DNA from: an uncultured Acidobacteriota bacterium
Lineage (GTDB): Bacteria; Acidobacteriota; Thermoanaerobaculia; UBA5066
Assembly: GCA_963779415.1 (NCBI GenBank)
Contig: CAVZYA010000001.1
Location: forward strand, 1,824,001-1,888,000
Reading direction: 5' to 3'
Length of the DNA stretch: 64,000 bases
Positions 5,367 through 61,280 of the stretch are shown piece after piece. Positions within the stretch are counted from its first letter, which is position 1. The number at the start of each line of letters is the position of its first letter. The position numbers and the translations under genes were made by a program. The notes below the pieces were generated by a model that saw nothing but the letters and a program-made list of their open reading frames with translations, did no database searches and was not told the origin of the DNA.

Positions 5367-5467
5367 AGTCTCGCACGACGGCGCCGCGCTCCCCCCTCCC
5401 CCGACGGCCCCACGCCGGCGAAAAAAGGAGCGCCATCCCCGTCCGGCGCCGATAACATCCGCGTCCG

Positions 5468-8181: not shown

Positions 8182-8217
8182 GACGTGGCGACCTCATCCC
8201 CGGCCGGCCGTGCCGCT

Positions 8218-37417: not shown

Positions 37418-37426
37418 CGACGCCCC

Positions 37427-40709: not shown

Positions 40710-40770
40710 GGAGAAAGATTCCTCGGAAAGGCTACCACAGTCCCTCCTGCCGATCGGGAGCTGTTGCCTC
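40710..40770 (-). promoter_or_regulatory. Putative extended -10 promoter (TGgTAGCCT), copy 1 of a duplicated upstream element
   Basis: 45/61 nt identical without gaps to 42140-42200; lies upstream of the dehydrogenase gene. Confidence 0.65.
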
Positions 40771-42292: not shown

Positions 42293-44011
42293 TCACCTCG
42301 AGGCATCTATGCGTCCCAGGTCGAGGACGGCCGTATCCCGAACACGAAATACCGCTGCAGCGTCGAGCTGTCTCCGGATCTCGAGCTCGCGCCCTCCGGC
42401 GGCCCGAACGGCGTCTTCTATATCACGATCGAAAGGGGCGAAGTACTCAAGTCTGCCTCCCCGGAGCGCCTCGAGGTCGACAACGAGATGTGTCACGCCG
42501 AATTCTCGATACAGCCGCATCAGCGGTTCCGGCGTCGTCGCAAAGAACGCATCGATCAACGCTCGCATTCTGCGACGCATTTCGAGTGTGTATTTGTCGT
42601 GAAATGCCCAATGCGTTTCGTAAGTCACGAAAGCGCGACGGCGTACGAGATACGGAACTGTATCGAAGAACTCCGATGGCCAGCCGGCGATCACGGAGTC
42701 CGAAGGCAACGTCTCGAGAAACCGGTAAACGGGGTCCGCAGGGTCGGCCCGTCTGTTCAACCCTGCATCCCCGGATCCCCTGCTTCCAAGCAGGACGAGG
42801 GTCGCGATCCCGAACATCCCAACAGCCGTTTGCGAGAGCCAGCGCCGCCGCGCAGCGGACGAGCCTGGTATGAGGCCAGCGGCGCCGGCCCCGAGCAGGA
42901 CAATCGCGAATGGAGGCAGCGCGTATGCGACGTAACGATTCGGCAAGTACAGGGCCGGGAACAAGGGCTGGGCAATTACGTAACCCGCCAGCGCCGCGAT
43001 TGGCAGAAGCGTGATCCGGCGAACCTGGGGGCTCCGGATGAGGAGCCTCAGCCATCCGATCGACGACAGAACCAGCATAGCCAGGAGCGTCACCAGCAGC
43101 CTTCGACCGGACCCGTTCGACCGGATCCACCGCCCCACGACCGAGATCGGAGTGCCGGCTCCAGGGACCGCGGAACCGATGACGGATTCCGTCTCGCGAA
43201 CGAATCCCCGAAACGGAGGTCGATTGCTGGGGCTGTTCCGCCCCCCGGGCCCCGCCTCCGGAAACTCCGCCGACCGGTCCGCCGTGATGAGTCGTCCGAA
43301 CCGAGCCGAGAGAATCTCGACAGGCAGCAGAATCACGACGGCGATGCCCGCGACGCCAAAAAGAGCGCCGATCCGCTTCCCCGGAGCCCACGATGCGGCA
43401 GGCCCTCTCTCCTCGGAGATCGGATGGAACAGCAGTATCGCCAGGCATATGCCCGCAAGGACCCCGGCAATCGGATAGAAGGCCGCCCCAAGCCAGACCA
43501 GCAGCGAGAGCGCCCGAATGCTGCCGTACGCGAGCGCCACCAGAACACCGGCCAGAATGGGAAAGCCAAACGAGCGCGGCAGACCACCGGCCATCTGAAA
43601 GAGGAACGCGCCGCTCCCGAAGCAGAGACACGCAGACGTCCATGCCGCAAGAACACCTGCAATCCTGTAAGCGACGAGCGCGATGCAATAGACGGTCACT
43701 AACAACAGCACGTAAGGAAGGGCCTTGCTGAGCGTCGTTGCGCCGTTCAGATGCGCCGCAGCGGTATAGAGGCCTCGATATCCCACCGGGAGACATGCCA
43801 GGTCGTAGTCAGAAGCATAATCACCACGGAGTGCGGGAGATTCGTACCGGAAAAAGGGAACAATGTGTTGACGAACATCGTCGTTGAAGACGGACGGATC
43901 TCTAGCCAGCTGAATGTGAGAGTACAGAGCCGGGCCGTAGATCGCGGCGATTGTGACGACAAAGAACCCGGCAATCGCGATGGCGCGGAACGTCGGACGC
44001 AGAGGGGTCAC
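42293..44011 (-). CDS. Multi-pass membrane protein, probable GT-C-type glycosyltransferase
   Basis: TM1 followed by an acidic loop FNDDVRQH, P.GY..LY, about 10 TMs, LP.RY, C-terminal soluble domain ending ..GVTHLVV. Confidence 0.6.
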   Translation of the reverse strand: MTPLRPTFRAIAIAGFFVVTIAAIYGPALYSHIQLARDPSVFNDDVRQHIVPFFRYESPALRGDYASDYDLACLPVGYRGLYTAAAHLNGATTLSKALPYVLLLVTVYCIALVAYRIAGVLAAWTSACLCFGSGAFLFQMAGGLPRSFGFPILAGVLVALAYGSIRALSLLVWLGAAFYPIAGVLAGICLAILLFHPISEERGPAASWAPGKRIGALFGVAGIAVVILLPVEILSARFGRLITADRSAEFPEAGPGGRNSPSNRPPFRGFVRETESVIGSAVPGAGTPISVVGRWIRSNGSGRRLLVTLLAMLVLSSIGWLRLLIRSPQVRRITLLPIAALAGYVIAQPLFPALYLPNRYVAYALPPFAIVLLGAGAAGLIPGSSAARRRWLSQTAVGMFGIATLVLLGSRGSGDAGLNRRADPADPVYRFLETLPSDSVIAGWPSEFFDTVPYLVRRRAFVTYETHWAFHDKYTLEMRRRMRALIDAFFATTPEPLMRLYREFGVTHLVVDLEALRGGRLEYFAPFDRDIEDAVRAAGGRELEIRRQLDAAAVFRVRDTAVLDLGRIDASR

Positions 44012-44931: not shown

Positions 44932-45450
44932 ATGGCTCTGACTGGCATTCTCGTAGTCATACAGAAGGCCGCGCGAATCAGCTTTCTTGCGACGCTGGCA
45001 CTTTTCCTGATCCTTGGTGCCCCTACCGCGTTAATGAAGTCGCTCAGAAGAGTCAAGCAGGGGTGGGACCTTCGGCACGAGGCATTCATCGAATCGCGCA
45101 AGCGTCTCTTTGGAGCCGAGTACGTAGACGGCATAGAGGCCATTCGTAAATCGATATCCCCAGACGGCGAGTATCTGCTGGTACGAGAGCAAGGCGCGGA
45201 CGACGAGGCGGAACTTTGGGTCCGGTACGACCTGGCACCAAGGCGTGCAGTGTTCTTGGACCAATCCGTGTTTTCGCTTGCGCGAGGAGAAACACCGTCC
45301 CGGGGAGCAGTTGAAGCAGTGCCACAACTCGCGGTAATCGCGCGCGACCGTGGAAAGGCGCCACAGCTCGTCGCCACCACGCTGCTCTTCCCGGCAATTC
45401 AGGGGAGACAGCCCGTACCACGCGAAAATCCAGCGCCGTCTACTCGATGA
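44932..45450 (+). CDS. Hypothetical membrane-anchored protein
   Basis: N-terminal TM helix, soluble domain with W.RY.LAPR; ATGA overlap with the next gene. Confidence 0.65.
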   Translation: MALTGILVVIQKAARISFLATLALFLILGAPTALMKSLRRVKQGWDLRHEAFIESRKRLFGAEYVDGIEAIRKSISPDGEYLLVREQGADDEAELWVRYDLAPRRAVFLDQSVFSLARGETPSRGAVEAVPQLAVIARDRGKAPQLVATTLLFPAIQGRQPVPRENPAPSTR

Positions 45451-46925
45451 AGAGCGATCTGCTACGGTTTGCCTTCGGCGTCGGCGGGGTGGCGCTGTTC
45501 CTGAGCGCCGGCTTCGGCCTCTCCCAGCTATCGACCACGCTGCGGAGACGCTCACTGGCAATTCGCTTGGCTTACAGCTATTTGCTTGGTGTGGCCTATG
45601 TTGCTGGAGCAATGTATGTGACTTCCTACCTCCTCGGGCTTGCTCTCGAGCGCACGGTCATTCTTTCGATTGTCATCGTTCCGGGCGGCGTGGCGTTGAT
45701 CCAATGGCTCTCCGCTCGACGTCGCGTGGCTCGGGGTCTAACTGGAGGCTACTGTTCGTGGAGGAGAGTTACCCGCGATCCGCTCCTCGGGGTGGTCACA
45801 GCACTAGGTATCCTCGTGTCGCTGGGAGTCCTGGCTGAAGCGATGACTAACCCGGTGACGGACCCAGATGGGCGGATTGAGTGGTGTCTTCAGGCGAAGT
45901 ACCTTCGAGCAGAACAGAGTGTCACCCCGAAGGCCCTGCGGGAGGCGCAGTGGTATGTGACTAACCGCGGATACCCGCTGTTGCTCCCTTTGGCGCAGGT
46001 GGCCATCCAACAAACGTTTTCGACGAATGAAGATGAACGTGTCTTTCGGCCCTTGTACGCAGCGTTCTTTCCAGTGTCTCTTCTGATTGTTTTTGAGGGC
46101 TCCGCACGCCTCGCCGGACGGCGATGGGCAGCGACGGCGGTTCTGATGGCATCGATTGTCCCTTTTCTTGCGTCTTCGAGTAACGGCGGAGCAGCGTCAG
46201 CGTGCAGCGATCTTCCACTTGCGTGTTTCTTCACCGGCGGGATACTTCTTCTTCTTGGCGATCGAAGGTCTCTCTCATCGACGATCGCTGCAGGCGCGCT
46301 TCTGGCAGCCTGCGTTCTGACAAAACAAGAAGGACTTGTGCTTGCAGTGGTGGCGGTTGCGGCCGGCTCGAGTGTAGTGTTTCCATTTTTTACACGACGT
46401 GTTCGTCCCCAACGGACAACTTACCTTATGGCAAGGCTGGGCTTTCCGGTTTTCGCGGTCGTGTCGGCTCTGGCGCTGCGAATGTCGTGGTCAGCGCGGA
46501 TTTCCCCAACGATGTTTGATTATGTGACGCCGCTGTGGAAGGTGTCGACATACCTCGAGTTTCTTCCCCGACTACTGAGAGCAGCACCTGAAATGCTCAG
46601 TGAGACTCTTAATCGACAGAAGTGGGGGCTTTTCTGGGCCGTCGTAGTGCTCGCTTTCATCGCAGGATTGCAGGCGTTTCGTTTCCGATTCTGCCGGCTA
46701 CTGCTGTTGGCTGCACTAGCTCCTTTGGCGGTGGCCTGCCTGGCATATGGCGTCGATCCGGGCTCCGGCTGGGTGGCAAGGCACAGCTGGAGCCGATTTC
46801 TGGCGCAGGCGTCGCTCCTGATTCTGGTGGTCCTGCCGTTCTTCGTGAAGCAGGCCATCGGAGGGATGTCTCCCCGAGTGTGGGTCCAGCGTAACTCTCG
46901 TGTTCGAGGTGGTGTTTCGGTCTAG
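45447..46925 (+). CDS. Multi-pass membrane protein, GT-C (ArnT/PMT-like) family
   Basis: About 12 TMs, P...D....W...AK, GYPLLLP, DLPLA, LTKQEG motifs; lower GC than the backbone genes. Confidence 0.7.
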   Translation: MKSDLLRFAFGVGGVALFLSAGFGLSQLSTTLRRRSLAIRLAYSYLLGVAYVAGAMYVTSYLLGLALERTVILSIVIVPGGVALIQWLSARRRVARGLTGGYCSWRRVTRDPLLGVVTALGILVSLGVLAEAMTNPVTDPDGRIEWCLQAKYLRAEQSVTPKALREAQWYVTNRGYPLLLPLAQVAIQQTFSTNEDERVFRPLYAAFFPVSLLIVFEGSARLAGRRWAATAVLMASIVPFLASSSNGGAASACSDLPLACFFTGGILLLLGDRRSLSSTIAAGALLAACVLTKQEGLVLAVVAVAAGSSVVFPFFTRRVRPQRTTYLMARLGFPVFAVVSALALRMSWSARISPTMFDYVTPLWKVSTYLEFLPRLLRAAPEMLSETLNRQKWGLFWAVVVLAFIAGLQAFRFRFCRLLLLAALAPLAVACLAYGVDPGSGWVARHSWSRFLAQASLLILVVLPFFVKQAIGGMSPRVWVQRNSRVRGGVSV

Positions 46926-47213: not shown

Positions 47214-47375
47214 ATGTATGTCGATCAGGACGGCCGAAGGTCGATGCTCATAATCGCGCTCGCCGCCGACTCCGAGGAGCGCCTTGACATGACCGGCGAC
47301 TGGTTCACATGGGGCAACGACGCGGCGACGATGAGCCGGGGCGCCAGGGCGCTGGGCCAAGGGAGGTCTGAATGA
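47214..47375 (+). pseudogene. C-terminal remnant of a paralog of the downstream beta-propeller gene
   Basis: Translates MYVDQDGRRSMLIIALAADSEERLDMTGDWFTWGNDAAT…SE*, aligning with DQDGRRPWRLPALAAGTDGGIYITGDWFTQGSDTAT of 47372-48640; its TGA overlaps that gene's ATG. Confidence 0.8.
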
Positions 47376-48640
47376 GAAGCGTTACGCTGAAGTGGTACGG
47401 GCTCGTTGTTGCGGCGTTCGCGGTCGCGTGCATCGGTATGGCCGCACGCGGCGAAGAGGCCAGGAAGCTCGTGACCCGCTCCTGGAACCTCTGCGACTAC
47501 AAGACCGATCTCGACGGCCAGTGGGAGGGCTCGATCGTCGCCTCCGACGGAAACTGCTACTTCGCCAGCTCGACCCACTCCGGGCGGACCGGAGGGATGT
47601 TCTTCAAGTTCGACCCCAGGACCGAAAAGATAACCGTCCTCACCGACGACATCACCAGGGTCTGCGGCGAGGAACCGACCCGGGACGCCCCCCAGGGCAA
47701 GATCCACTCCGATGTCGACGAGATGGACGGGTGGCTCTACTTCGGCACCCACGAGTCCTATGGCACGCCAACCAGGCTCTATAAGGGTGCGCACCTCATC
47801 GGTTACGAGATGAAGACCGGCAAGCTCAAGGACTACGGGGTGCTCGAGCCGAAATACACCAACTACGCCGGGCTGGCCGCCGATCCGAAGAACAAGTGCG
47901 TCTACGTTTACCTCATCTATCCGGGCCAGAGAAATGACAAGCCCAGCTTCCTCTACAGGATCGACGTCAAGACGGGCCAGAAACGCAAGGTACACGAGTT
48001 CCCGGGGATGCTGGGCGACATGAAGGCTGGCGGCTACGACGCGGCGGTCTACTACATGTACTGCGACCCAGGCGGCGTCCTGTGGCTCCCCACCTGGAAG
48101 GGGCTCCTCGCCAGGTACGACCCGCCGAAGGACAAGGTCGAGCTGATCGACGGCGTGTTCCCCTTCAAGGCCGAGATGCCCCACCAGAACTGGACGTGGA
48201 TACAGCCGATCCCCGGGCAGAGCAAGGCGGCGGTGACCTGCGGCGACGGCCTCTACATATTCGACCCGTCGGGGGAAAAGCCCGGCTTCAAGCTCGTCGC
48301 CAGAATCGGGAAGACCGATCTCGGAATCGCCATTGCGGGGAACATCGTCTACTTCGTCCAGGACCTGCACCTCAAGGCGGTGGACATCGGCAAGGAGAAT
48401 CCGCCGGTGACAGACTACGGCTTCGTTACGGACCAGGATGGCCGCCGGCCATGGCGCCTGCCCGCACTGGCCGCGGGCACCGACGGCGGCATCTACATCA
48501 CCGGCGACTGGTTCACCCAGGGCAGCGACACCGCCACCACGCGCCTGAGCCGCGAGAGGAACATGGGAGAGGAGACGTATCCGGCCCAGAAGCGATGCGA
48601 GCGCTTCGCTTACGTGAAGGTGACGCCGCCGGGGAAGTGA
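47372..48640 (+). CDS. Secreted beta-propeller-like protein of unknown function
   Basis: Signal peptide; repeated blades (SDG..YF, FDP.T.K, DG.LYFGT, Y...TGK, ID.KTG, YDP..DK, FDP, DG.IY); QGKIHS motif; Lys-rich with strongly C/G-ending codons. Confidence 0.75.
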   Translation: MRSVTLKWYGLVVAAFAVACIGMAARGEEARKLVTRSWNLCDYKTDLDGQWEGSIVASDGNCYFASSTHSGRTGGMFFKFDPRTEKITVLTDDITRVCGEEPTRDAPQGKIHSDVDEMDGWLYFGTHESYGTPTRLYKGAHLIGYEMKTGKLKDYGVLEPKYTNYAGLAADPKNKCVYVYLIYPGQRNDKPSFLYRIDVKTGQKRKVHEFPGMLGDMKAGGYDAAVYYMYCDPGGVLWLPTWKGLLARYDPPKDKVELIDGVFPFKAEMPHQNWTWIQPIPGQSKAAVTCGDGLYIFDPSGEKPGFKLVARIGKTDLGIAIAGNIVYFVQDLHLKAVDIGKENPPVTDYGFVTDQDGRRPWRLPALAAGTDGGIYITGDWFTQGSDTATTRLSRERNMGEETYPAQKRCERFAYVKVTPPGK

Positions 48641-48709: not shown

Positions 48710-49750
48710 TCAAATGCTGCGAGCGCTCTGATCGATTCTGCGCAGCCAGCGCAGGACCCGCAGGGTGAACGCGCGCGTCCCAAATAGCAGCACGGGAGAA
48801 GAGACGACGATCAGGGCGGCGAGACGCCCCTTGCTCCCGGACCACCGCCACGCGGCGATGATCGTCTGACGCATCAACGAACGCTCGCCGCGCGCAGCAC
48901 AGAGGATCGAACCGTCCAGAAAGAGATCGACGATTCTGGGCCAGACCGTCGGATCCCGGCGCCACGCCGTCCTCTCCAGATTTCTTGCGATTGCAAGGTG
49001 AGCCAGAGCGAAGCTCCGAGCGTCTTCGAAGGGCTTCCTGATCGAAAGCCGATCGGGGGCGTCGACCTGTACGAAGCAGAGGGCCTCGGCCCGGTGCACG
49101 ATGGCAACTTCGTGACAACCTGCCCGGACGTCGTACTCCTTGTCTTCCCAGTTCCGGAGAGGGAGCCATGCTCCAATCGCATTCACCGCCGATCGCCGCC
49201 AGACGCACGAGCCTGTCGCCCATGGCCTTCTCCACAGCACCGTGGGAAGGAACCCGTCACAGGTCGGATCCCCGCCCCGAAAGACCTCCATGGCATCCTC
49301 ACCCTTCATGGCGACCGATGCGCAGTACGCCATCCCCGCACCGGGCGAGGCGCGGAGTGCCGTCACCAGAACGTCGAGAAAACGTGGCGCCCAGAAGTCG
49401 TCCGAATCAAGGTAGGAAACGTAAGCCCCCGTTGCCACCCTCCGACCGGCCTCGCGTGCGGTGCCTGGCCCGCTGTTGGTCTCGAGCCGAAGAAGCCGTA
49501 CGGCCACGTCACGTCGCCGATCGCCGCCGGGCACGACGTAAGGCACCGGCGATGCGTCGTCGACAATCACCAACTCGATGGCGGGGTAAGTCTGCGCGAA
49601 GACCGATCTGACGGCGCGGTCCGTCAGATCCGCGCGGGCATACGTCGGAATCACGACCGTGACGACTTCGGTTCCAGCAGAAGGCACCTGGCCGGTCCCG
49701 GACGAGGGCGTCCCTTCGCAGCTAACCCTCGTGAGTTCGTCCCGCGTCAA
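48710..49750 (-). CDS. Glycosyltransferase family 2 (start uncertain)
   Basis: VTVVIPTY.R, SV.AQT, VIVDDAS, NSGPG.AR..G, YLDSDD.W, ED.EY. Confidence 0.88.
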   Translation of the reverse strand: MTRDELTRVSCEGTPSSGTGQVPSAGTEVVTVVIPTYARADLTDRAVRSVFAQTYPAIELVIVDDASPVPYVVPGGDRRRDVAVRLLRLETNSGPGTAREAGRRVATGAYVSYLDSDDFWAPRFLDVLVTALRASPGAGMAYCASVAMKGEDAMEVFRGGDPTCDGFLPTVLWRRPWATGSCVWRRSAVNAIGAWLPLRNWEDKEYDVRAGCHEVAIVHRAEALCFVQVDAPDRLSIRKPFEDARSFALAHLAIARNLERTAWRRDPTVWPRIVDLFLDGSILCAARGERSLMRQTIIAAWRWSGSKGRLAALIVVSSPVLLFGTRAFTLRVLRWLRRIDQSARSI

Positions 49751-49754
49751 GCTG

Positions 49755-51440
49755 TCACTCTCGCTCGGTCCTGCGACCGAAGGAAAGACGCGCCTTGACC
49801 CGGGAGGCCAACGCGCCGCGCAGCCTTTGCAAGGGCGATCTGGCCGGCTCGCGCAGCACCACCTCGACAATCGAGACGCCGCCCTCCCGGATCACTCGAG
49901 AGAGCGTCTCTTCGACGTCCCCTGCCAGCCTCACATAACGGGCCCCGACCGACTCCGCAAAACGGCGGAAGTCCGGATTCCGGAGTTCCGTCCCGTGAAG
50001 GTGCCCGTACGTGCCGAGCTGTTGCCCACTGATGGCGCTGTAGAGCCCGTCATTGAAGACGATCGCGGTGAGCGGTATCTCCTCGCGCACCGCCGTGAGC
50101 AGCTCGAGCCCTGAAATGGCGAAGCCGCCGTCTCCGAGGAGGGCGACCACGGTCCGGTCTGCGCGGGCGAGCCGCGCTCCGATGGCCGCCGGCAACGCGA
50201 AGCCCATTGCCTGAAGATTCGTCGGAAGGATGAGACCCCGGGGCCGGAGGACGCGAAAGTGGCGTCGCCCCAACATCTGGTGCCGGCCGGAATCGAGGAC
50301 CAGGCAGGATTCCGCGGGCATCGCACGGCGCAGGGCGGCGAAGAAGCCCTCGATCGACGCCGGCCGCCCTCCTCGAATCGTCGGCTCCGTACCACGTGGC
50401 GCCGCCTCCGTGACGCGCCGTCTCCATTGGCCGACCTCCTCCTCCGTGAAGCCCGAACCGATGGACGTCTCTGAAGACAAACGGCGGTTCAGGAGCGCCC
50501 TGATCACGGACGGGACGTCGGCGGCGAGGGTCGACGACGCGTCGTAATTCGCTCCGAGGACCGCTTCGGACGCGTCGACGTGGATCAGCCGATCCGGCGC
50601 GAGCCGAAGGCGGAAACCGTGCGCTCCGTTGTGAGAAAACTTGCAGCCCAGAGCCAGGACCAGATTCGCGCTATCGAGGAGTTCGTTCAGCAGGGGGACG
50701 CTTCCGCGATCGAAGCACAACACCCACGGGTTGTCCTCTGGTACGACACCGCGTCCCGACGTCGTCGTCACGAGCGGTGCCTTCAGGGTCTCCATGAGCT
50801 GGAGCAGCTCCGCCGCCGCGCCGTTCGCTCCCTGTCCGACGTAGAGCACGATGCGCCGCGCCCCGCACACCCGAAGTGCGATTTCGTCGACCGACGGCGC
50901 TTCTTGATGCGGACGCTCCGAGGGAGCGGGCGGCGACACCGTGCCTTCGTCCGAAAGAGTTCCGGGCGAGACCTGAACGACCACCGGTCCCGGCTCCCCG
51001 GCCCGGGAAACGGCATAGGCCTCTTCGAGCGTGGCTTCGACGCCCTCGGCGGTCCTGAGGTCGAAGACACGTTTCACCAGCGGCGCCACCACCGCCCGCT
51101 GGTCGAGTGCCTGGAGCTGGAACCGCCGGCCCGGGCCATCGGCCGGCCCCCCGACGATGTGCAGGACCGGGGCCGAATCCAGGAGAGCTTCGGCGAGCCC
51201 CGTCAGGGAATAGGTGAACCCCGGTCCCGGTATCGTCAGGAGCACGCCCGGGCGGCCCGAGGCACGCGCGTAGCCATTTGCCATGAAGGAGGCGGCCAGC
51301 TCGTGCGTTGCGACGATGGTTCGCAGACGCGATTTTCGAAGCGCCTCGAAGAGAGCGACGTTCTGCGTGCCGGGAAGACCGAAGACGGTCTCCACGCCGA
51401 GAGTCTCGAGGGCTCGACAAAGACGCTCGGCGCCGCTCAC
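49755..51440 (-). CDS. Thiamine-diphosphate-dependent enzyme, acetolactate-synthase-like
   Basis: GV..VFGLPG, HE..A.FMA.GYAR.SG.PG, GPG, G.PGPV, MGF.LP.AIGA, GDGGF…ND TPP-binding motif, PDF...A. Confidence 0.9.
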   Translation of the reverse strand: MSGAERLCRALETLGVETVFGLPGTQNVALFEALRKSRLRTIVATHELAASFMANGYARASGRPGVLLTIPGPGFTYSLTGLAEALLDSAPVLHIVGGPADGPGRRFQLQALDQRAVVAPLVKRVFDLRTAEGVEATLEEAYAVSRAGEPGPVVVQVSPGTLSDEGTVSPPAPSERPHQEAPSVDEIALRVCGARRIVLYVGQGANGAAAELLQLMETLKAPLVTTTSGRGVVPEDNPWVLCFDRGSVPLLNELLDSANLVLALGCKFSHNGAHGFRLRLAPDRLIHVDASEAVLGANYDASSTLAADVPSVIRALLNRRLSSETSIGSGFTEEEVGQWRRRVTEAAPRGTEPTIRGGRPASIEGFFAALRRAMPAESCLVLDSGRHQMLGRRHFRVLRPRGLILPTNLQAMGFALPAAIGARLARADRTVVALLGDGGFAISGLELLTAVREEIPLTAIVFNDGLYSAISGQQLGTYGHLHGTELRNPDFRRFAESVGARYVRLAGDVEETLSRVIREGGVSIVEVVLREPARSPLQRLRGALASRVKARLSFGRRTERE

Positions 51441-51450
51441 GGTCGACCCA

Positions 51451-52514
51451 TCAGGAATCCGAAGGGCGCCGACGGAGGCGGTCCGCCGACGCCGCGAGCT
51501 TCTTCCGAAGGAACTTCGTCATCTCGCGGCTTCTCCGAGCCCAGCGAAAACGCGCCGACTCGGGGCTTTCCAGAAGAAGGCACAGGTGAAGGTCGCCTCC
51601 GAGCTGAGCCTTGAAGTGGGTCACGGGGTTGAGGGGGGCGTCCGTAAGGTCGTTCGCGGTGACTCCCTGCTCCGAGAGGCGCTTGAAGACATTCCACCGG
51701 AGAAAGGCCGTGGCTCCGAGATTGAGATACTGCCCGTCCGCGGCGGCGCACACCGTGTCCGACATGGTATTCGCGCCGACGAGAACCAGCTGGGTCGACA
51801 CCGACGGTCCCTGAGGCAGCCGGGCGTGGAACAGGCGGGCGAGGCCCCGGGATCTCAGGCGTCCGAAGAAACGCTCGAACGCCGCCCGGGGAAGGTAGAG
51901 GCGGACGCCCTTCCGCTCGTGAATCTGGGAGTGGAGGCGAAAGAAGCTGTCGAAGTCGTCATCCTCCGTCACGGAAAGGCCTTCGCGACCCGCCCGCTCC
52001 ACGAGCCGCCTGAGGTTCTGCTCCACGCGCGCCCAGAGCAGGTCCAGGTCCGAAAGTGGGACGGCATAGCTGTACTGAAGGCTTGCCGTCCAGCCTCTCG
52101 CGAGAAGAACCCGGACGTCGGTGATGGAGCTCCGGCATCGCAGCGCGATGTGGCCGTAGCCCCGGGCGGCGAGACCACTCGCCAGCGCCTCGAGGATTTC
52201 GTTCTGCCGCGAGGTCCGTTGGGAGGGGTAGCGGGTCTCGAAAGGCCGCAGGAGGATCCCGTTGTAGTAGAGAAGGAGCCGCGGCGAGACGTACGTTCCC
52301 AGACGCGACGTCCGCTCGTAGACGGCGACCCCACCGAGGATCTCGTCGCCCTTTTCGACGGCCAGAATGCGATAGCTCCCCCCGCCGCCTCGCAGAGGGC
52401 TTCGAGGTACTCGGGGGTGCTGTAGACGGCGCCCTGCGCCGACCGGGAGACCAGCTGGTTCCACGCCGGATAGTCGGCCTCCGCGAGGAACCGACTGGCG
52501 AGCCCTGCTCTCAA
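51451..52514 (-). CDS. GNAT-fold protein (FemAB/Acetyltransf_6-like), frameshift in a G-run at ~52380
   Basis: W..LV..S.QG.VY.TPEYL N-terminus (ORF 51969-52514); then Y.G, LRR....A...G, F..L, L.W, FK.Q.GG C-terminal Fem-like motif. Confidence 0.8.
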
Positions 52515-53725
52515 CCGTCGAGCCTCTGCCGGCTCTGCTTCCTGATCCAGGAGCAGAAGCTGACGATCCCGGGCACGGGATCTTTCCAGGTGAAGTACGG
52601 CTCATACGCTCCGATCCAGGATCGAATCAGGGACCAGCCGCTCACGGCCTGCTTCCTCCACTCGGCGAGCCCGCTCTGCAGATCGAGCCGCGGGTAGACA
52701 CAACGTCGTCCGAGCCGATATTCCCGGACAGGCTCGACCTCGCCGCCGAGAGCGTCACGGTAGGCCATCTCGCAGACGTCGATGCCGCAGCGGGCGGCGA
52801 AGTCCACGTACCACCACGGCCGGGCATTCACCTCCAGGATCTTGTACAGACCGTCCCGATCGTCGAGCTTGAACTCCGCGCTGAAGACACCGTGATACCC
52901 GATTTCGCTCAGGAGCCGCGTGATCGTCTCCACCGCTCCGGCCACTTCGCCCAGCGGAATGGTCACGCAAAGGGTGCTGTTGCCAAACAATTCCGGGAAC
53001 ATCCGGACTCGCCGGCGCGCGAGGAGGCCGCAGATCCGTCCGCGCCGGTCCACGAAGCCTTCGACGAAGACGTGACGCGTCGGAGGACCGGGGATGAACT
53101 CCTGAAGCATCACCGTCAGACCGTTCGCGGAGGCATCCTGGAGCAGCCGGAGTGCGTCTGCGCGATCCGTGAAGCGGAGCGCTTTTGCCCCGTAGAATTT
53201 GGCAAAGGCCGTCGACTGGTTCGGTTTCACGAAGTAGTCCTGCAGCCGATCGGCCGGAACCTCTTCGAGCGCCGCCGCGTCACGGAGGACGACTGTCCTG
53301 GGATGAGGGAGGCCCAATCTCGTGAGCGTTTCGGCGAAGACGGCCTTGTCCACCAGCTGCCTGAGAGTCCCGGGAGGAGCCACGCTGCTCGGAAAGCGGG
53401 TCGCAAGCTCCGGCTTCAGCCGGCTGACCGCCATGGCCCACGCGTCCGAGCAGGGCAGGAGGACCATTCGGCTGATGGTCAGCGACTCGAGCCGCGAACC
53501 GAGGTTCTCTTCGGAGAACTCGTCCGGGCCTTCCTCGGGCAAGGTCCGATACCAGCGCGAGCGGGTGATCTCGCCGACGCGAGCGCCTGTCACGTACAGG
53601 GGCACGCCGCGTCTTCCGAGGCAGCGCACGGCCCCGAGTACCGTGAGGCCGCGCCCGAGGATCAAGACCGGCACCGCATGGCGCCGGTTCGCGCCGTCAG
53701 GCTCCCCGGCCGTCGAAGAGCTCAT
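52511..53725 (-). CDS. ATP-grasp carboxylate-amine ligase (D-aspartate-ligase-like)
   Basis: LG.VR.LGR.GV, SRW, LLP.SD, DK..F.....GLP.P.T, VKP, QEFIPG, EFK.D.RDG.YKILEVNAR.W, D..P. Confidence 0.85.
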   Translation of the reverse strand: MSSSTAGEPDGANRRHAVPVLILGRGLTVLGAVRCLGRRGVPLYVTGARVGEITRSRWYRTLPEEGPDEFSEENLGSRLESLTISRMVLLPCSDAWAMAVSRLKPELATRFPSSVAPPGTLRQLVDKAVFAETLTRLGLPHPRTVVLRDAAALEEVPADRLQDYFVKPNQSTAFAKFYGAKALRFTDRADALRLLQDASANGLTVMLQEFIPGPPTRHVFVEGFVDRRGRICGLLARRRVRMFPELFGNSTLCVTIPLGEVAGAVETITRLLSEIGYHGVFSAEFKLDDRDGLYKILEVNARPWWYVDFAARCGIDVCEMAYRDALGGEVEPVREYRLGRRCVYPRLDLQSGLAEWRKQAVSGWSLIRSWIGAYEPYFTWKDPVPGIVSFCSWIRKQSRQRLDG

Positions 53726-53743
53726 CCCGCTTCCCGTCGCGGC

Positions 53744-53832
53744 AGTCTACACACTCCGACGACGAACCGTCGGCTGCCCCGTCGCGCCCGGTGCGCCACG
53801 AGCCGCTGTCGCCGTCTTCCCGATGGTATGAT
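53744..53832. promoter_or_regulatory. Divergent promoter pair: TAGACT (-) for the ATP-grasp operon and TGgTATGAT (+) for wzc
   Basis: Near-consensus -10 hexamers at ~53744-53749 (minus) and 53827-53832 (plus, with extended TG) in otherwise GC-rich intergenic DNA. Confidence 0.55.
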
Positions 53833-53919
53833 TTCCGGGGTTATATCCGGCGTCCCGGCTGAAGTGTGCGGAAGGCGTGTCCTCCCGGCTCCATGAAGCC
53901 GTCCGCCGCAGGGAGACTA

Positions 53920-56217
53920 GTGCCGATGCCGAGTCTGGAGCTCGAAGAAGAGACGCTGAATCGCCCGTCCGAGCCCGAGGTACATCTCGCGGACCTGTGG
54001 CGTGTCGTGGTCCAGCACCGCGGGCTGGTCATCGGGTCCGTCGTCCTTTGTCTCGCCACGGCGTGGGTGGTCGCCTTCCTGACGAGGCCGATGTTCCGCG
54101 CTTCGACGCTCCTTGCCCTCGAACAGGAACGCGATAATCCCCTGGACATCGCCGCGAGCGTGGCGCGTCAGCGCGGCCCGGACGCCATCTCGGTCGAGAC
54201 CGAGTCGCGGCTCATGAAGAGCCGCGATGTGCTCGAGCGCGTCGTGAGGAAGCTGAGCCTCGCCGAGTCGGCTCCCAAGCAGGAGACGACGAGCGCCAAT
54301 GGCACGCCGGCCGCCACCGCGCCGGCTTCCGACATCGATCCCGTCGCGGAGGCCGCCCTGGGCCTGCAAGAGAGCGTCGACATTCGGCCCGTACGAGGCA
54401 CGGAGCTCATCGAGATCCTGGTCACGGCGCATTCCGCCCGGAAAGCCGCCGACCTCGCCAATGCGGTGGCCGACGCCTACGTCTCCTGGAAGCTCGAGTC
54501 GAGGTTCCGGCTGCTGGGCCAGGCCTCCGAGTTCCTCACGAGCCAGATCGAAGATGCCAAGTCGGCTCTCGCGCAGAAGGAGGAGCGTCTCCTCGCCTTC
54601 GGCCGGCGGAAAGACATCCTGAGCACCGACCTCCAGAGCGGATCAGCGGCCGCGAAGGTCGATGCCCTCGCGCGCGACCTCGCCGCGGCTACGGCCGACC
54701 GGATCTCGAAAGAGGCCCGCGAAGCGGAGCTTCGAAACGCACGTCCCGAAACGCTCGCCGACTCGATTTCGGGCGGCCTCGTCCCGCAGCTTCGGGCCGA
54801 TCAGGCCCGCCTCGAGCGCGAATACCAGGCCAAGCTCGACGTCTACAAGCCCGACTGGCCCGCCATGCGGCAGCTCAAGGCCCAGATCGAGAAGGACCGC
54901 CAGAATCTCGACCTCGCCATCCAGGAAGCCGTCCGAAAGGCACGCGAATCCGCGCATTCCGACGTCCTCGTCGCGCAGCGCCGCGAGGACATTCTCCGGA
55001 GCGCCCTGCAGACCCAGCGCTCCCAGGCGATGGCAGGCAACGCCGACGCCGTCGAGTACAGCAACCTGAAGGTGGAGACCGACACCCAGCGGGCGCTCGT
55101 CGACAACCTTCTGAAGCGGCAGGCGGAGATCCAGGTCCTGACCCGCGTCGAGGGCGAACGCGTCTCGAACGTCCGGATCGTGGAGCGGGCCCTTCCGCCC
55201 GGCTCGCGCTTCCGCCCCTCCTATCGTCTCAACAGCCTCGTCGGGCTGGCCTGCGGCCTGTTGCTCGGCGTGGGGCTCGCCTTCATGGCCGACTACATGG
55301 ATCGGAGCCTGCGGACTCCGGAGCATGTGAGCCGGTACCTGAAGCTCCCGGTTCTCGGAATCATCCCGGCCGCCGACGGGGTTACGGAAGGGGTCTACGC
55401 ATCCCCCTCGCCTGCCGACGCCTCTGCTACCCGCAAGAAGTCCAGGCCGAACGCTCTTCGTGTGAAGGCCGTGAAGGCACAGAAGACCCCCCTCGAGCTT
55501 CTTCCTCACACGCTTCCCCGCTCCACGGTGGCCGAGGCCTACCGCGCCCTCCGGACGTCCCTTCTCCTCTCCACGGCCGACCGTCCCCGCTCCGTCGTCG
55601 TCACGTCGGCCATCCCTCTCGAAGGGAAGACGACGACGGCGACGAACCTCGCCGTCGTCCTTTCGCAGCTCGGAAAGAAGGTTCTCCTCGTCGATGCGGA
55701 CCTCCACCGGTCACGCCTCCACGAGATCTTCCAGGTCTCGAACGTCGTCGGCCTGGTCACCGTGCTCACCGGACTGAGCGACACCGGAACGGCCGTCCAC
55801 GGGACCGAGATACCGGGCCTGTTCGTTCTCCCGGCCGGTCCGAATCCGCCGAACCCGTCGGGGCTCCTCTCCTCAGACAGAATGCTCGAGTTCCTCAACA
55901 GCGCATTGGCCGAGTACGACTTCGTCGTTCTCGACACCCCGCCGGCTCTCGTGCTCGCCGACGCCGTCCTCGTCGGGCATCTGAGCGACGGCATCATCCT
56001 GACCGTTCGGGCCGGCAGCACGCCGCGCGAACAGGTCGTCCGGGCCCGGGACGAACTCCGCCGGGGAAATGGCCGGATCCTCGGGGTCGTTCTCAACGCG
56101 CTGAAGGACGAAAGTGGCGACATCACGTACCGCGAGCGGTACGGCGCCCGCTACTACCAGGGTACGGCGAGTCCAGCCGAGACCGCCGAGACGCCGTCCG
56201 CCGTCAAGACGACTTAG
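53920..56217 (+). CDS. wzc: Polysaccharide co-polymerase / BY tyrosine autokinase (Wzc/GumC)
   Basis: Wzz-like N-terminal TM, coiled-coil periplasmic region, second TM, AEAYR.LRT, Walker [23 protein letters not shown]-terminal Tyr cluster [10 protein letters not shown]; start 53893-53926. Confidence 0.94.
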
Positions 56218-56233
56218 AGCGAGCGGGAGCCAG

Positions 56234-57298
56234 ATGCGACTCCTCGTCACCGGCCATCTCGGCTACATCGGCACGGTGCTCGTGCCGATGCTCCGGGCCG
56301 AGGGGCACGACGTCGTCGGCCTCGACAGCGCCCTTTTCGAGCGGTGCACCTTCGGCGATCCGCCGCAGACGGTGCCGGAGATCCGGAAGGACATCCGGGA
56401 CGTCCGGCTCCCTGACGTCCAGGGCTTCGACGCGGTGATCCATCTCGCGGCCCTCTCGAACGACCCTCTGGGAAACCTCGACCCCGACCTGACCTACGAC
56501 ATCAACCACAAGGCTTCGGTTCGTCTGGCCGAGCTGTGCAAGCAGGCGAAGGTCGCCCGCTTCCTCTTCTCCTCCTCTTGCAGCCTTTACGGAGCGGCGG
56601 GCGAGAGTCCCGTGGACGAGCATGCCCCCTTCAACCCCGTCACGCCCTACGGCCACTCCAAAGTGCTCGTCGAGCGGGATGTCGCCCGACTGGCCGACTC
56701 GAGCTTCAGCCCGGTCTTTCTCCGAAACGCGACGGCCTACGGTGTCTCGCCGCGACACCGGTTCGACATCGTGCTGAACAACCTGGTCGCGTGGGCCTTT
56801 ACGACGGGCCGCGTCCACATCAAGAGCGACGGCACGCCCTGGCGCCCCATCGTGCACGTCGAGGACATCTCACGGGCGTTCCTCGCGGCGCTCACGGCCC
56901 CCCGCGACGTCATTCACAACGAAGCCTTCAACGTCGGGCAGGACGGCGAGAACCACCAGGTCCGTGACCTCGCCGAGCTGGTCCACCAGGTCGTGCCGGG
57001 GTGCACGATCGAGTACGCCGCGGACGCCGGACCGGACAAGCGAAGCTACCGCGTCGACTTCGGAAAGATCTCGAGGCTCCTCCCCGCGTTCAAGCCCGAA
57101 TGGAATGCCCGGCGGGGCGCCGTCCAGCTCTATGAAGCGTATCGCCGAACAGGGGTCCGGCTCGACGAGTTCGAAGGCCCGCGATACCGCCGGATCGACC
57201 ATATCCAGGAACTCATCCGCTCCGGCGTTCTCGGCCGCGACCTTCGAAGAACGAGCCCCATCGCCGCCCCCGCTGCGGAGCCCGGCCGGAGCGAATGA
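56234..57298 (+). CDS. NAD-dependent sugar epimerase/dehydratase (extended SDR)
   Basis: [55 protein letters not shown]. Confidence 0.9.
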
Positions 57299-58558
57299 CC
57301 TCGGACACCGGCACGGGACCCGGGCCTCGAACGCTCTGCCGGTTCTGCCGGGCGCCGCTCACCCGGACCTTCGCCGACCTCGGGATGTCTCCCCTGTGCG
57401 AAAGCTACGTGACCGCCGATCGGCTCGACGAGATGGAGCCTTTCTTCCCGCTTCACGTCTGGGTCTGCTCGCGATGCTTCCTGGTCCAGCTGGGGGAGTA
57501 CGTCTCCCCCGCGGAGATCTTTTCGGAATACGCCTACTTCTCCTCCTACTCGGAGTCGTGGGTGCGGCACGCGAAGGCCTATGCCGATCGGATGGCGCAG
57601 CGGCTCGGTCTCGGCGCCGGCAGCCGGGTCGTCGAAGTCGCCAGCAACGACGGGTACCTCCTGCAGCACTTCGCGGCGAGCGGGATTCCCGTCCTCGGAA
57701 TCGAGCCGGCGACGAACGTGGCGGCGCGCGCGATCGAACGGGGGATTCCCACGATCGAGCGATTCTTCGGACCGGAGCTGGCGCGGGAGCTGGCGTCCGA
57801 CGGGAGGCAGGCCGACCTCATCGTCGGGAACAACGTCCTCGCCCACGTTCCCGATCTGAACGGCTTCGTGGACGGCCTCCGCATCCTCCTGAAGCCTTCC
57901 GGCACGATCACGATGGAGTTCCCGCATCTCTGGCGGCTGATGGACGAGAACCAGTTCGACACGATCTACCACGAGCACTTTTCGTATCTTCTCGCTTCTC
58001 GTCGCCGAGAAGGTCTTCGCCGCGCACGACATGACGGTCTTCGACGTGGAGGAACTGTCGACCCACGGAGGCTCGCTTCGCGTCTACGCCCGGCACCGGG
58101 CGGACTCCTCGCGACCCGTGACGGCGGCCGTCGAGACCCTCAGGAGCCGGGAGAGGAGCGCGGGCTTCGAGAACCTCGAGCACTATGACGGCTTCATGCC
58201 GAGGGTGGCCGAGACGAAGCGGCGCCTCCTCGGCTTCCTCATCGAGGCGAAGGAGCGTGGAATGTCGGTCGCGGCCTACGGTGCCCCCGGCAAGGGGAAC
58301 ACCCTTCTGAACTATTGCGGGATCCGGACGGATTTCCTCGAATATGCGGTCGACAGGAACCCCTACAAGCAGGGCAAGTTCCTGCCGGGAACCCACATTC
58401 CAATCTTTCCCGTGGAGAAGCTCGACGAGACGCGGCCGGACTACGTGCTCATCCTTCCATGGAACCTGAAGGACGAGATCGTGAAACAGATGACCCGGGT
58501 GCGAGGCTGGGGAGGCCGCTTCGTCGTCCCGATCCCCCGGGTGGAGATCATCGAATGA
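57295..58558 (+). CDS. NDP-hexose C-methyltransferase (NovU/TylCIII-like), frameshift at ~57988
   Basis: Zn-binding CRFC...[35 protein letters not shown] (restored by removing one base), [37 protein letters not shown]. Confidence 0.92.
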
Positions 58559-59113
58559 ACTTTCATCCTCTCGAGGTCTCCGGGGCCTTCCTGATCGAAC
58601 CGCAGCCGATCCCCGACGAGCGGGGTTTCTTTGCGAGGCTCTGGTGTCAGAAGGATTTCGAGGACCGCGGACTCGATCGGGCGCATCGTCCAGTGCAGCC
58701 AGTCCTTCAACGCGAGAAAGGGAACCCTGAGGGGCCTTCACTACCAGCTCCCGCCGCATGCCGAGGCGAAGGTCGTCCGGTGCCTGAAGGGAGCGATCTA
58801 CGACGTCGTCCTCGACCTGCGGCCCGAGTCCCCGACCTTCAGGAAATTCGCGGCGATCACCCTCACGTCGGAGAATCGGTCGATGGCGTACGTGCCAAAA
58901 GGGTGTGCGCACGGGTTCCAGACACTCGAGGACGAAACCGAGGTCCTTTACCTGATTTCGGAGCTCTACCGGCCTGACCATGCCCGCGGCGTTCGGTGGG
59001 ACGATCCGGCGTTCCAGATTCCATGGCCGCCGGGGGAGAAGATCCTGAACGATCGGGATCGAAGCTATCCCGACTACCGCCCCCTGGAAGGCGGAACGTC
59101 CGATGGGCGCTGA
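58555..59113 (+). CDS. rfbC: NDP-4-keto-6-deoxyhexose 3,5-epimerase (RmlC/RfbC family), frameshift at ~58680
   Basis: DERGFFAR, GTLRGLHYQ, E.K.VRC..G.I.DV..DLR..SPT, P.G.AHGFQTL, G.RWDDP...I.WP, D. Confidence 0.9.
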
Positions 59114-60413: not shown

Positions 60414-60482
60414 CCTCGACGCCCGTGACGTTCATTACGCCGGGGTTTTGCGCGATACTTCCCTGGGTCACGACGTGAGGAT

Positions 60483-61268: not shown

Positions 61269-61280
61269 TCGACGCACGAG

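Follow-up and report, generated by a model that had tools for sequence, protein, structure and literature searches.

A conserved three-gene unit of an ATP-grasp ligase, a Fem-like transferase and an acetolactate synthase-like enzyme in an acidobacterial polysaccharide locus

An ATP-grasp ligase, a Fem-like tandem-GNAT transferase and an acetolactate synthase (ALS)-like thiamine-diphosphate (ThDP) enzyme are encoded by three adjacent genes that form a conserved unit, and in the uncultured soil bacterium studied here this unit is set in a large polysaccharide gene cluster. We propose, with a probability of roughly 0.5, that the trio is a portable cytoplasmic module that makes a building block derived from a 2-oxo acid, and links this block and an aminoacyl residue by amide bonds to an amino sugar of an exopolysaccharide. 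The charge of bacterial surface polysaccharides, their adhesion and their recognition by immune systems and phages are largely set by aminoacyl, acyl and amide substituents, and the enzymes that install non-sugar substituents are, to our knowledge, mostly unknown. We found no published description of the trio.

The window, a 64,000-nucleotide stretch of DNA, carries four co-directional genes on the minus strand at positions 48710–53725, in the order ATP-grasp, Fem-like GNAT, ThDP enzyme and family 2 glycosyltransferase (GT2). The stop codon of the ATP-grasp gene and the TTG start of the Fem-like gene overlap in TTGA (52511–52514), the GNAT stop is separated from the GTG start of the ThDP gene by 10 nt (51441–51450), and 4 nt lie between the ThDP stop and the likely GT2 start. 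Divergent from the ATP-grasp gene, and with its start codon about 140 bp away, is a wzc-type gene for a tyrosine autokinase/chain-length protein (53866–56217, plus strand; TIGR01005, 6.7e-64; TIGR01007, 171 bits, above cut-off). The first-pass annotation had described four tightly linked minus-strand genes divergent from wzc, and coordinates, overlap and 10-nt gap all agree with that description. It had also placed a promoter region common to the cassette and wzc between them, a proposal that gained no support from a sigma-70 consensus scan of the intergenic region (53726–53865), which returned no promoter match.

To define the conserved unit, we examined 79 related loci (numbered with the prefix L) collected with an ATP-grasp profile. 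The arrangement ATP-grasp, GNAT, ThDP recurs in the same order and on the same strand in 34 of them; in four further loci the ATP-grasp–GNAT pair is interrupted by a contig end, in eight further loci the ATP-grasp gene is followed by the ThDP gene without the GNAT, and in four the ThDP gene is located within 10 kb of the ATP-grasp gene. Trio loci are scattered over the ATP-grasp tree and come from six phyla: Acidobacteriota, Gemmatimonadota, Actinomycetota, Planctomycetota, Zixiibacteriota and Pseudomonadota. No further gene family is widely shared among the 1008 ORFs that these loci contain, and no regulator, exporter, resistance gene or reductase is conserved with the trio. The dN/dS values are 0.22–0.26 for all three genes relative to L001, and 0.23–0.30 for the GNAT and ThDP genes relative to L014; as judged by these ratios, all three are under equal constraint. 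The cassette is rare, patchy and accessory in its distribution, and the GNAT turned up in 4 of the 301 Acidobacteriota genomes sampled and in none of three from the same family. The conserved order across six phyla, together with a separate IlvB elsewhere in the genome, bears out the earlier view of a dedicated module, and the synteny of the ThDP gene with ligase and GNAT in 34 of the 79 loci runs counter to the scenario, also considered there, of a catabolic or IlvB-like gene that is not syntenic with these partners.

The conserved unit is thus made up of three genes, and not of the four initially proposed: homologues of the GT2 gene occur in two of the 79 loci (L001, 66% identity; L019, 36%), and adjoin the trio in a single close relative, L001, on its opposite side. 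This locus-specific fourth gene (48710–49750, minus strand; PF00535, 1.5e-21) encodes a glycosyltransferase that has a hydrophobic segment towards its C terminus, at residue 310. Its longest ORF (start at 49870) would overlap the ThDP gene by 116 nt, and the TTG at 49750, 4 nt past the ThDP stop, is the likely start.

The first gene of the trio (52511–53725, minus strand) encodes a 404-residue predicted ATP-grasp carboxylate-amine ligase, assigned from its fold and from a weak Pfam match that falls short of the gathering score (PF15632, E = 1.6e-4). The ATP-grasp fold and the ATP- and Mg-binding residues are present. The nearest folds are those of amino-acid and amine ligases, including the L-amino-acid ligases BacD, RizA and BL00235, as well as PylC, although the matches are generic (TM about 0.6), and the protein is closest to the uncharacterised 2pn1/PRK12767 type. 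No solved ligase shows significant sequence similarity to it (best E 0.007). One clade with the ATP-grasp gene only is located among housekeeping genes.

The second gene (51451–52514, minus strand) would encode a FemX/Sba18-like tandem-GNAT transferase of about 354 residues if read through. It had been described as one gene of the operon; as assembled, however, it is split into two frames, where the start at 52514 opens about 45 codons and the GNAT body lies in another frame. The genes of L001 and L014 are intact and read GGGTGGG at this point, and DNA alignment with them places a 1-nt deletion in a G-run at 52378–52383 (minus strand), a site that contigs from four public runs do not cover. 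We consider the break to be probably an assembly error, because the dN/dS of the gene is in line with the values of the adjacent genes and splits also affect further genes of the window. PF13480 (Acetyltransf_6, E = 3.5e-10) is the sole Pfam model above cut-off; the match to FemAB (PF02388; E = 0.007, 15.6 bits) falls below the cut-off of 24, and that to TIGR03019, its one NCBIfam match (6e-6, 25.5 bits), far below the cut-off of 260. Fold comparison reveals two tandem GNAT domains in a FemX-type overall arrangement, with FemX and FemA as the best matches and MprF-type lipid aminoacylases next; the fold also resembles that of Sba18/Sbb17. Phe301-Lys302 is invariant in a 15-sequence alignment and aligns with the F-K of 9wqy; the catalytic lysine has been placed in a C-terminal F-K motif in FemX (Lys305) and DhpH-C (Phe328-Lys329) (PMC12945691). 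The family also ends in a basic C-terminal tail. Based on this fold, the protein is probably an aminoacyl-tRNA-dependent transferase, and the fold matches support the earlier assignment of both the ATP-grasp and the Fem-like protein as formers of amide bonds.

The third gene (49755–51440, minus strand, GTG start) encodes a 561-residue protein with the three ThDP-enzyme domains PF02776, PF00205 and PF02775 (E 1e-24 to 6e-35). All NCBIfam models score it below cut-off, including TIGR00118 (approximately 266–267.5 bits against 538) and TIGR02418 (221 against 551), while a true IlvB on another contig of the genome reaches 722 bits against the cut-off of 538. Its top match in the PDB is E. coli ALS I (6lpi). 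In the alignment with 7u25 and 6lpi, the sequence K-F-S-H-N takes the place of RFDDR, the arginine of which (Arg377 in A. thaliana) binds the acceptor keto-acid in acetohydroxy-acid synthase (AHAS). The RFDDR motif is absent from all 37 cassette ThDP enzymes; the subfamily motif is K-F/L-x-H-N/S, its histidine being kept in 35 of the 37, and the IlvB of the genome reads VRFDDR. The glutamate that activates the cofactor and the GDG...N motif are retained, and a glutamine aligns with AHAS Gln207. A Pfam scan of 48 ORFs in the window identified no ilvN/ilvC or als/bud neighbours. By its sequence, the enzyme belongs to a separate ALS-like subfamily and is not IlvB, YerE having been compared by gene context only.

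Beyond wzc lies a possibly linked sugar cassette (56114–61934, plus strand), identified by Pfam and NCBIfam and by the position of its homologues, which adjoin ATP-grasp/ThDP genes in eight loci (L001, L028, L036, L038, L050, L052, L064 and L072). It encodes an SDR epimerase/dehydratase, a sugar C-methyltransferase (split), an RmlC-like protein, a DUF4910 protein, a glucose-1-phosphate cytidylyltransferase-like protein and a PIG-L deacetylase. The same cassette, with cytidylyltransferase, C-methyltransferase, RmlC-like, DUF4910, PIG-L and class-III aminotransferase genes, accompanies ligase and ThDP enzyme in Gemmatimonadota, L001 and L072. The class-III (glutamate-1-semialdehyde-aminomutase-like) aminotransferase of the window (40769–42121, minus strand; NF004856, 704 bits against a cut-off of 486) is a possible accessory; its homologues (58–64% identity) occur in 6 of the 79 loci, and in L072 the gene immediately precedes the trio, on the same strand. 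PIG-L genes are found in seven loci, and a CE4 deacetylase gene is directly upstream of the ATP-grasp gene in seven Gemmatimonadota loci.

In the mechanism that we propose, the trio is set in a Wzc/Wza-type exopolysaccharide locus and followed by a locus-specific GT2. The ThDP enzyme would decarboxylate a 2-oxo acid and release or carboligate the product to give an unusual aldehyde, hydroxy-ketone or acid block. The ATP-grasp enzyme would convert a carboxylate to an acyl phosphate and then to an amide, its partner most likely being the free amine of an amino sugar precursor provided by a PIG-L/CE4 deacetylase or an aminotransferase; the joining of an amine to the carboxylate of a uronic acid appears less likely. 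The Fem-like enzyme may then transfer an aminoacyl residue from aminoacyl-tRNA to an amine of that intermediate, in an optional step: because the GNAT is absent from eight loci, the core does not depend on aminoacylation from tRNA. Finally, the GT2 or another transferase of the locus would pass the decorated sugar to the repeat unit. We infer the choice of substrate at every step, the order of the steps is guesswork, and we found no precedent in the literature for a ThDP enzyme in aminoacyl or acyl decoration of glycans.

A further scheme, which we regard as quite unlikely, would have tRNA-dependent peptide or aminoacyl decoration of a polysaccharide precursor take place on a scaffold made by the ThDP enzyme. 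Here, the ATP-grasp enzyme would couple an amino sugar, once deacetylated, to a 2-oxo-dicarboxylate, the ThDP enzyme would decarboxylate or carboligate the sugar-tethered 2-oxo-acyl group, the class-III aminotransferase, where present, would convert the carbonyl to an amine, and the FemX/Sba18-like enzyme would aminoacylate this new amine from aminoacyl-tRNA. If true, the non-sugar substituent would belong to a new class, the ThDP enzyme would be the first known to act on an N-acyl sugar, and the cassette would have spread among soil phyla by horizontal transfer.

The trio could also be a complete pathway in itself, leading to a small metabolite that is soluble or secreted. The product might, for instance, be peptide-like or contain an acyloin, with a 2-oxo acid, an amino acid and aminoacyl-tRNA as precursors, and the position of the trio in polysaccharide loci would be incidental or a matter of co-regulation. 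We consider this possible, though not probable. Thirteen trio loci, selected for phyletic spread and not at random, were annotated by Pfam. Polysaccharide export or synthesis genes clearly adjoin the trio in four (L022, L024, L053 and L068), and at least one glycosyltransferase or sugar-modifying gene does so in three (L019, L056 and L072), giving a glycan context in 7 of 13; L051 is ambiguous. No glycan gene is located within 10 kb in the remaining five (L003, L013, L049, L065 and L073), so the target of the trio need not be a polysaccharide, and efflux or ABC-type genes are found there (MacB/HlyD in L049, RND/OEP in L065). The patchy, accessory distribution and the dipeptide-antibiotic ligases BacD and RizA among the nearest ATP-grasp folds also fit a metabolite, and the characterised non-cell-wall Fem-like enzymes named in the available part of PMC12945691 are all natural-product pathway enzymes. 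However, neither regulator nor exporter nor resistance gene is conserved with the trio, polysaccharide genes or deacetylases adjoin it in many loci, and in the window the cassette runs in the same direction as the GT2 gene, which it almost abuts, and is divergent from wzc.

The good fold matches to FemX, FemA and the MprF-type enzymes raise the question of another envelope target, such as a peptidoglycan precursor, a lipid, or a PEP-CTERM or S-layer protein. The ligase and the Fem-like enzyme might attach amino acids to this target, much as the stem peptide of peptidoglycan is modified by D-aspartate ligase and FemX. ATP-grasp homologues are named "D-aspartate ligase" by one source, PEP-CTERM, EpsI/exosortase or SLH-domain proteins are encoded nearby in L072, L050, L003 and L013, and the ATP-grasp-only clade among housekeeping genes would be compatible with such a role. 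The label, however, is an automatic annotation, the annotated loci show no mur, mra or penicillin-binding-protein genes next to the trio, and the ThDP enzyme would be left without a role. We therefore find this target doubtful. As to XrtA/PEP-CTERM exopolysaccharide systems, whose FemAB-family member is described by TIGR03019, the Fem-like protein scores far below the cut-off of that model, an EpsI/exosortase domain or a PEP-CTERM protein is encoded next to the cassette in L050 and L072, and PEP-CTERM-type export genes flank it in L022 and L053.

The first-pass annotation had suggested a YerE-like reaction, in which the ThDP enzyme adds a C-branch derived from a 2-oxo acid to a CDP-4-keto sugar from the neighbouring cassette. 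The decarboxylase superfamily of the ThDP enzyme also includes YerE-like enzymes (PMC12247030), SDR and RmlC-like genes and the cytidylyltransferase-like gene (which at 209 bits misses the cut-off of 300) are found beside wzc, and among the loci that combine this cassette with ATP-grasp/ThDP genes, L064 holds a true CDP-glucose 4,6-dehydratase (484 bits). In the 92%-complete genome, by contrast, no such dehydratase scores above the TIGR02622 cut-off (best 66.5 bits against 278); in YerE-type clusters this enzyme helps to supply the CDP-3,6-dideoxy-4-keto sugar, together with a cytidylyltransferase and E1/E3. A YerF-type NAD(P)H reductase, frequently with an aldolase, marks the described YerE clusters (PMC9306805), and neither adjoins the ThDP gene, flanked as it is by GNAT and GT2. 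Its constant partners are the ligase and the predicted tRNA-dependent transferase, and not sugar-nucleotide genes, a SAM-dependent sugar C-methyltransferase is already available in the cassette for branching, and 5 of the 13 annotated trio loci lack a sugar gene within 10 kb. Taken together, these observations make the suggestion very unlikely. An ordinary acetolactate/acetohydroxy-acid synthase in a metabolic operon is barely conceivable, even though acetolactate synthases rank first among its PDB and NCBIfam matches and homologues are annotated as "acetolactate synthase large subunit", given the scores far below all ALS cut-offs, the true IlvB elsewhere, the replacement of RFDDR and the lack of ilvN/ilvC nearby, which likewise uphold the earlier judgement that branched-chain amino acid synthesis is unlikely.

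Returning to the proposed module for exopolysaccharide decoration, the work defines a compact three-gene unit, present in at least six phyla, that pairs two predicted amide-forming chemistries with a distinct, uncharacterised ALS-like subfamily. It offers a target for enzymology, since all three proteins are soluble and the ThDP homologue is present in a cultured candidate organism, and would correct the labels "acetolactate synthase large subunit" and "D-aspartate ligase" on thousands of database entries. Should the Fem-like enzyme use aminoacyl-tRNA on a glycan precursor, tRNA-dependent aminoacylation would reach the exopolysaccharides of Gram-negative soil bacteria, and would no longer be confined to peptidoglycan, lipids and antibiotics.

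Each component resembles a known system in part. Orf11/Sba18 glycylates an amino sugar from Gly-tRNA (PMC12945691); the Fem-like protein of the window shares approximately 14–18% identity with Sba18/Sbb17 (Orf11 of the streptothricin-type antibiotic BD-12) and with FemX/FemA, and differs from Sba18 and FemX in its gene context, being encoded alongside the ligase and the ThDP enzyme, and in its occurrence in Gram-negative and other soil phyla. In the Caulobacter holdfast, HfsK is a soluble FemX-like tandem GNAT with a basic C-terminal tail, coupled genetically to EPS loci, and its proposed role is the acylation of sugar amines that the deacetylase HfsH has freed (PMC5362036). CE4 or PIG-L deacetylases similarly accompany the cassette, whose GNAT family ends in a basic tail as well, but HfsK has no ligase or ThDP partner. 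Cj1438C of the Campylobacter jejuni HS:2 capsule is an ATP-grasp domain that amidates GlcA (PMC11800379); it is described as TupA-like and is fused to a GT2, whereas the ATP-grasp protein of the window stands alone. The ThDP enzyme shares the three-domain architecture, the glutamate and GDG...N with IlvB and YerE-like enzymes at approximately 30% identity, but has K-F/L-x-H-N/S in place of RFDDR, and ligase and Fem-like protein as constant partners in place of an AHAS regulatory subunit or a YerF reductase. Finally, the cassette recalls the logic of mycothiol and bacillithiol synthesis, in which a PIG-L deacetylase (MshB/BshB), an ATP-dependent cysteine ligase (MshC) and a tandem GNAT (MshD) are combined; unlike the class-I tRNA-synthetase-like MshC, the cassette ligase is of the ATP-grasp type, its GNAT is of the predicted tRNA-dependent type, and a ThDP enzyme is added, with no thiol chemistry implied.

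The four genes at 48710–53725 lie head to tail on the minus strand of the window, which has a GC content of about 65% and, in a Pfam scan of its ORFs, is nearly all one polysaccharide locus: many GT4 and GT2 genes, a Wzy-like protein, Wzm/Wzt, Wza, CpsB and Wzc are encoded, as are UDP-glucose dehydrogenase and CapD-like and DegT enzymes. The ATP-grasp protein (52511–53725) comes first, and its stop is overlapped (TTGA) by the TTG start of the Fem-like GNAT at 52514; a three-domain ThDP enzyme (49755–51440) begins with GTG 10 nt past the GNAT stop, and a GT2 with a likely TTG start at 49750 follows 4 nt past the ThDP stop. The divergent wzc gene (53866–56217, plus strand) starts about 140 bp upstream of the cassette; a promoter/terminator scan of this region returned no promoter, with terminator-like sites at chance level. 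The description in the first-pass annotation stands, except that it leaves out a break in the Fem-like gene: the frame shifts about 45 codons from the start, and when the gene is aligned with its unbroken counterparts in two close relatives (loci L001 and L014), a G-run at 52378–52383 proves to be one base short.

The dN/dS values of both GNAT halves (0.26–0.30 against L014, 0.22 against L001) are similar to those of the neighboring ThDP (0.23) and ATP-grasp genes (0.26, taken against L001; the L014 ATP-grasp gene is itself split). Two further window genes are split: a UDP-GlcNAc 2-epimerase at 17095–18176 on the minus strand (PF02350 halves at 17388–18176 and 17095–17523) and a sugar C-methyltransferase at 57295–58558 on the plus strand (Methyltransf_13/23 at 57295–58188, Methyltransf_14 at 58031–58558). 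Based on the dN/dS parity, these two split genes and split matches of like kind in related large-contig metagenome-assembled genomes, we favor an error of assembly, or else a very recent event, as the origin of the GNAT frameshift. Of ten public sequencing runs, none recorded as RNA, contigs from four were compared with the window, and none extends over 52374–52491. Taken together, the three split genes suggest assembly indel errors and not gene decay.

Elsewhere in the window, an ABC-transporter export pair (Wzm-like ABC2_membrane and Wzt with Wzt_C; 36161–38572, minus strand) occurs together with Wza/CpsB/Wzc genes (7447–9057, minus strand; 53866–56217, plus strand), so that the locus may specify a pair of neighboring export routes or a pair of glycans. 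The segment 42293–48640 has a lower GC content (0.60–0.63) and reversed AT skew, and its ORFs matched no Pfam or NCBIfam family; two of them encode polytopic membrane proteins, possibly polymerase or flippase-like (42293–44011, about 9 hydrophobic segments; 45447–46925, about 10), and the stretch 47372–48640 shares 88% identity with its counterparts in L001 and L014. On the border of the glycan locus (4278–7423), a SpeA-type biosynthetic arginine decarboxylase with three Pfam domains adjoins a saccharopine-dehydrogenase-like gene, both being polyamine genes.

Homologues of the ThDP and ATP-grasp enzymes were repeatedly found on contigs of identical length. We searched GTDB species genomes with an ATP-grasp family profile, confirmed 410 candidates and kept the best 80, which gave 79 loci whose classes were assigned by tblastn with the proteins of the window. 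Among these 79 loci, ATP-grasp, GNAT and ThDP genes follow one another in the same order and on the same strand in 34; in 4 the contig ends after ATP-grasp and GNAT, in 8 the ThDP gene directly follows the ATP-grasp gene, in 4 it lies elsewhere within 10 kb, 27 carry the ATP-grasp gene alone and 2 are uninformative. Every locus was picked up by way of its ATP-grasp gene, so this census covers ThDP genes only where a ligase accompanies them. A GT2 homologue was found in only two of the 79 and is adjacent in L001 alone, there upstream of the ATP-grasp gene; the conserved unit is a trio, and not the four-gene unit first proposed. Clustering of 1008 ORFs from the 79 loci and the window gave no further broadly shared family, the next commonest being an AsnB-like amidotransferase in 11 loci.

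In an ATP-grasp tree of 78 loci and the window (FastTree, local supports only; L014 dropped, its gene being split), the full trio is scattered over Acidobacteriota, Gemmatimonadota, Actinomycetota, Planctomycetota, Zixiibacteriota and Pseudomonadota, and the loci with the ATP-grasp gene alone fall into a few derived clades. The GNAT profile matches 4 of 301 sampled Acidobacteriota genomes, the window's own included, and none of three genomes of the same family. Given this rarity in the phylum, the distribution matches that of a portable accessory module.

One Terriglobales clade (L025, L029, L032, L034, L039 and L041) has kept ATP-grasp homologues and lost the GNAT and ThDP partners. The two annotated members, L025 and L029, have housekeeping surroundings with a transketolase-type ThDP beta subunit and a holin-like 4-TMS protein, to which L029 adds a YbaK-like editing protein and Obg, and L025 RNase R; ORF clustering finds parts of this neighborhood in the remaining members of the clade. 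No additional Pfam domain is present in the long ATP-grasp homologues P0152, P0238 and P0196. A search for longer GNAT-containing proteins found two: P0242 (904 aa, 38% of the GNAT query covered, no Pfam domains on record) and P0241, an 864-aa protein from a metagenome contig and the single case of a predicted GNAT–ThDP fusion. Because the tail of the P0241 gene is apparently frameshifted, an artefact of assembly may explain the fusion, to which we give little weight.

Structure models were used to place the two amide-forming candidates. The ATP-grasp model (pLDDT 89.5) gives generic Foldseek matches, and its residues for binding nucleotide and Mg are invariant; the protein is predicted to be a competent carboxylate-amine ligase. 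The GNAT sequence matches PF13480 only, plus a marginal hit to the solved protein 9wqy (E 0.002). For the fold, the unbroken L014 orthologue was itself modeled, using an alignment of 15 family members with intact genes (pLDDT 90.1), and the top three Foldseek entries are Sba18 and Sbb17 (1e-16, TMt 0.8), with FemX next. Sba18 and Sbb17 are aminoacyl-tRNA-dependent peptide synthases, and two of the three entries were solved with the amino-sugar substrate streptothrisamine. An invariant F-K near the GNAT C-terminus aligns in sequence with F-K of 9wqy; according to a recent review (PMC12945691), the catalytic residue is Lys305 in FemX and, right after Phe328, Lys329 in DhpH-C.

The surroundings of the trio were annotated with Pfam in 13 loci picked for taxonomic spread. 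Unmistakable polysaccharide genes are present in four: L022 and L053 (Wza, chain-length and tyrosine-kinase genes of PEP-CTERM type), L024 (UGDH, GT2 and GT4) and L068 (CE4-DUF3473, DegT, GT4 and AsnB). Three more (L019, L056, L072) carry one or more glycosyltransferase or sugar-modifying genes, L051 is ambiguous, and five (L003, L013, L049, L065, L073) have no glycan genes within 10 kb. Across the 79 loci from the best 80 of 410, seven from Gemmatimonadota have a gene for a CE4 polysaccharide deacetylase immediately upstream of the ATP-grasp gene; one further locus has it at a distance of about 1 kb upstream, and another has it in divergent orientation. Seven loci encode a PIG-L deacetylase and six a class-III, glutamate-semialdehyde-aminomutase-like aminotransferase. 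L072 places the aminotransferase ahead of the ligase, GNAT and ThDP genes, in that order.

In Gemmatimonadota, L001 and the window, the ligase and ThDP genes accompany a recurrent sugar cassette. This cassette encodes glucose-1-P cytidylyltransferase-like, SDR, C-methyltransferase, RmlC-like, DUF4910/DUF2172/HTH_47 aminopeptidase-like and PIG-L proteins, as well as an aminotransferase that resembles GSA aminomutase and scores above the NF004856 cut-off; it lies at 56114–61934 (plus) and 40769–42121 (minus) in the window and in L028, L036, L038, L050, L052 and L064, with 55–65% identity between Thermoanaerobaculia-like and Gemmatimonadota genomes.

Based on these observations, we propose, with a probability of about 0.5, that the cassette is a cytoplasmic module working in four steps. 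Gene organization, conservation, folds and motifs are observed, and the substrates and step order are what we infer: (i) the ThDP enzyme would convert a 2-oxo acid to an unusual building block; (ii) the ligase would link a carboxylate as an amide to an amine of an amino-sugar precursor; (iii) the Fem-like enzyme would add an aminoacyl residue from aminoacyl-tRNA; and (iv) the locus-specific GT2, or another transferase, would use the decorated sugar. The five trio loci lacking glycan context, together with natural-product precedents, would fit a stand-alone small-metabolite pathway, which we consider possible but unlikely. That peptidoglycan, lipid or surface proteins are the decorated target seems more doubtful still.

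The ThDP enzyme bears on two further readings. The first-pass annotation had proposed YerE-type sugar branching; described YerE clusters are marked by an adjacent reductase or aldolase (PMC9306805, PMC12247030), whereas the ThDP gene here has neither, its constant partners are not sugar-nucleotide genes, and the genome contains no CDP-glucose 4,6-dehydratase above cut-off, so that this reading is improbable. The best matches of the enzyme are acetolactate synthases at about 30% identity, under every curated cut-off; a genuine IlvB on another contig of the genome, with VRFDDR and the Q-W-Q stretch, scores 722 bits (cut-off 538) against 266 for the window enzyme. In an alignment with plant AHAS (index offset +85), the Glu that activates the cofactor is kept, as is the position of Gln207, and K-F-S-H-N stands in place of R-F-D-D-R. 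In plant numbering, these changes turn Arg377 into Asn and Asp376 into His. All 37 cassette ThDP enzymes have the Glu and GDG and none has RFDDR, with His in 35. A homologue of the ThDP enzyme with 53% identity (WP_343791682.1) is encoded by the cultured bacterium Dokdonella soli. Judged by sequence, the cassette enzyme represents a distinct subfamily, and an ordinary acetolactate synthase is extremely improbable. A phosphonate (PEP mutase) role was dropped because the scan of window ORFs found no PEP mutase domain.

Protein-cluster look-ups of the cassette proteins returned only their own unnamed or generic clusters, and no description of the conserved trio was found in the full-text literature searched. 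Within that literature, no counterpart appeared to the conserved combination, above all to an ALS-like subfamily of its own that is tied to an ATP-grasp ligase and a FemX/Sba18-like transferase. The trio is a clean, testable three-protein system whose function we so far purely infer.

The superfamily of each enzyme is already known, as is glycan decoration by amide-forming enzymes as a kind of system. Mycothiol synthesis follows a deacetylate-ligate-acylate logic, which the deacetylase, ligase and tandem GNAT of these loci recall. The same combination recalls the model proposed for HfsH and HfsK in the Caulobacter holdfast (PMC5362036), and Cj1438C is an example of an ATP-grasp enzyme able to amidate a capsule sugar (PMC11800379).
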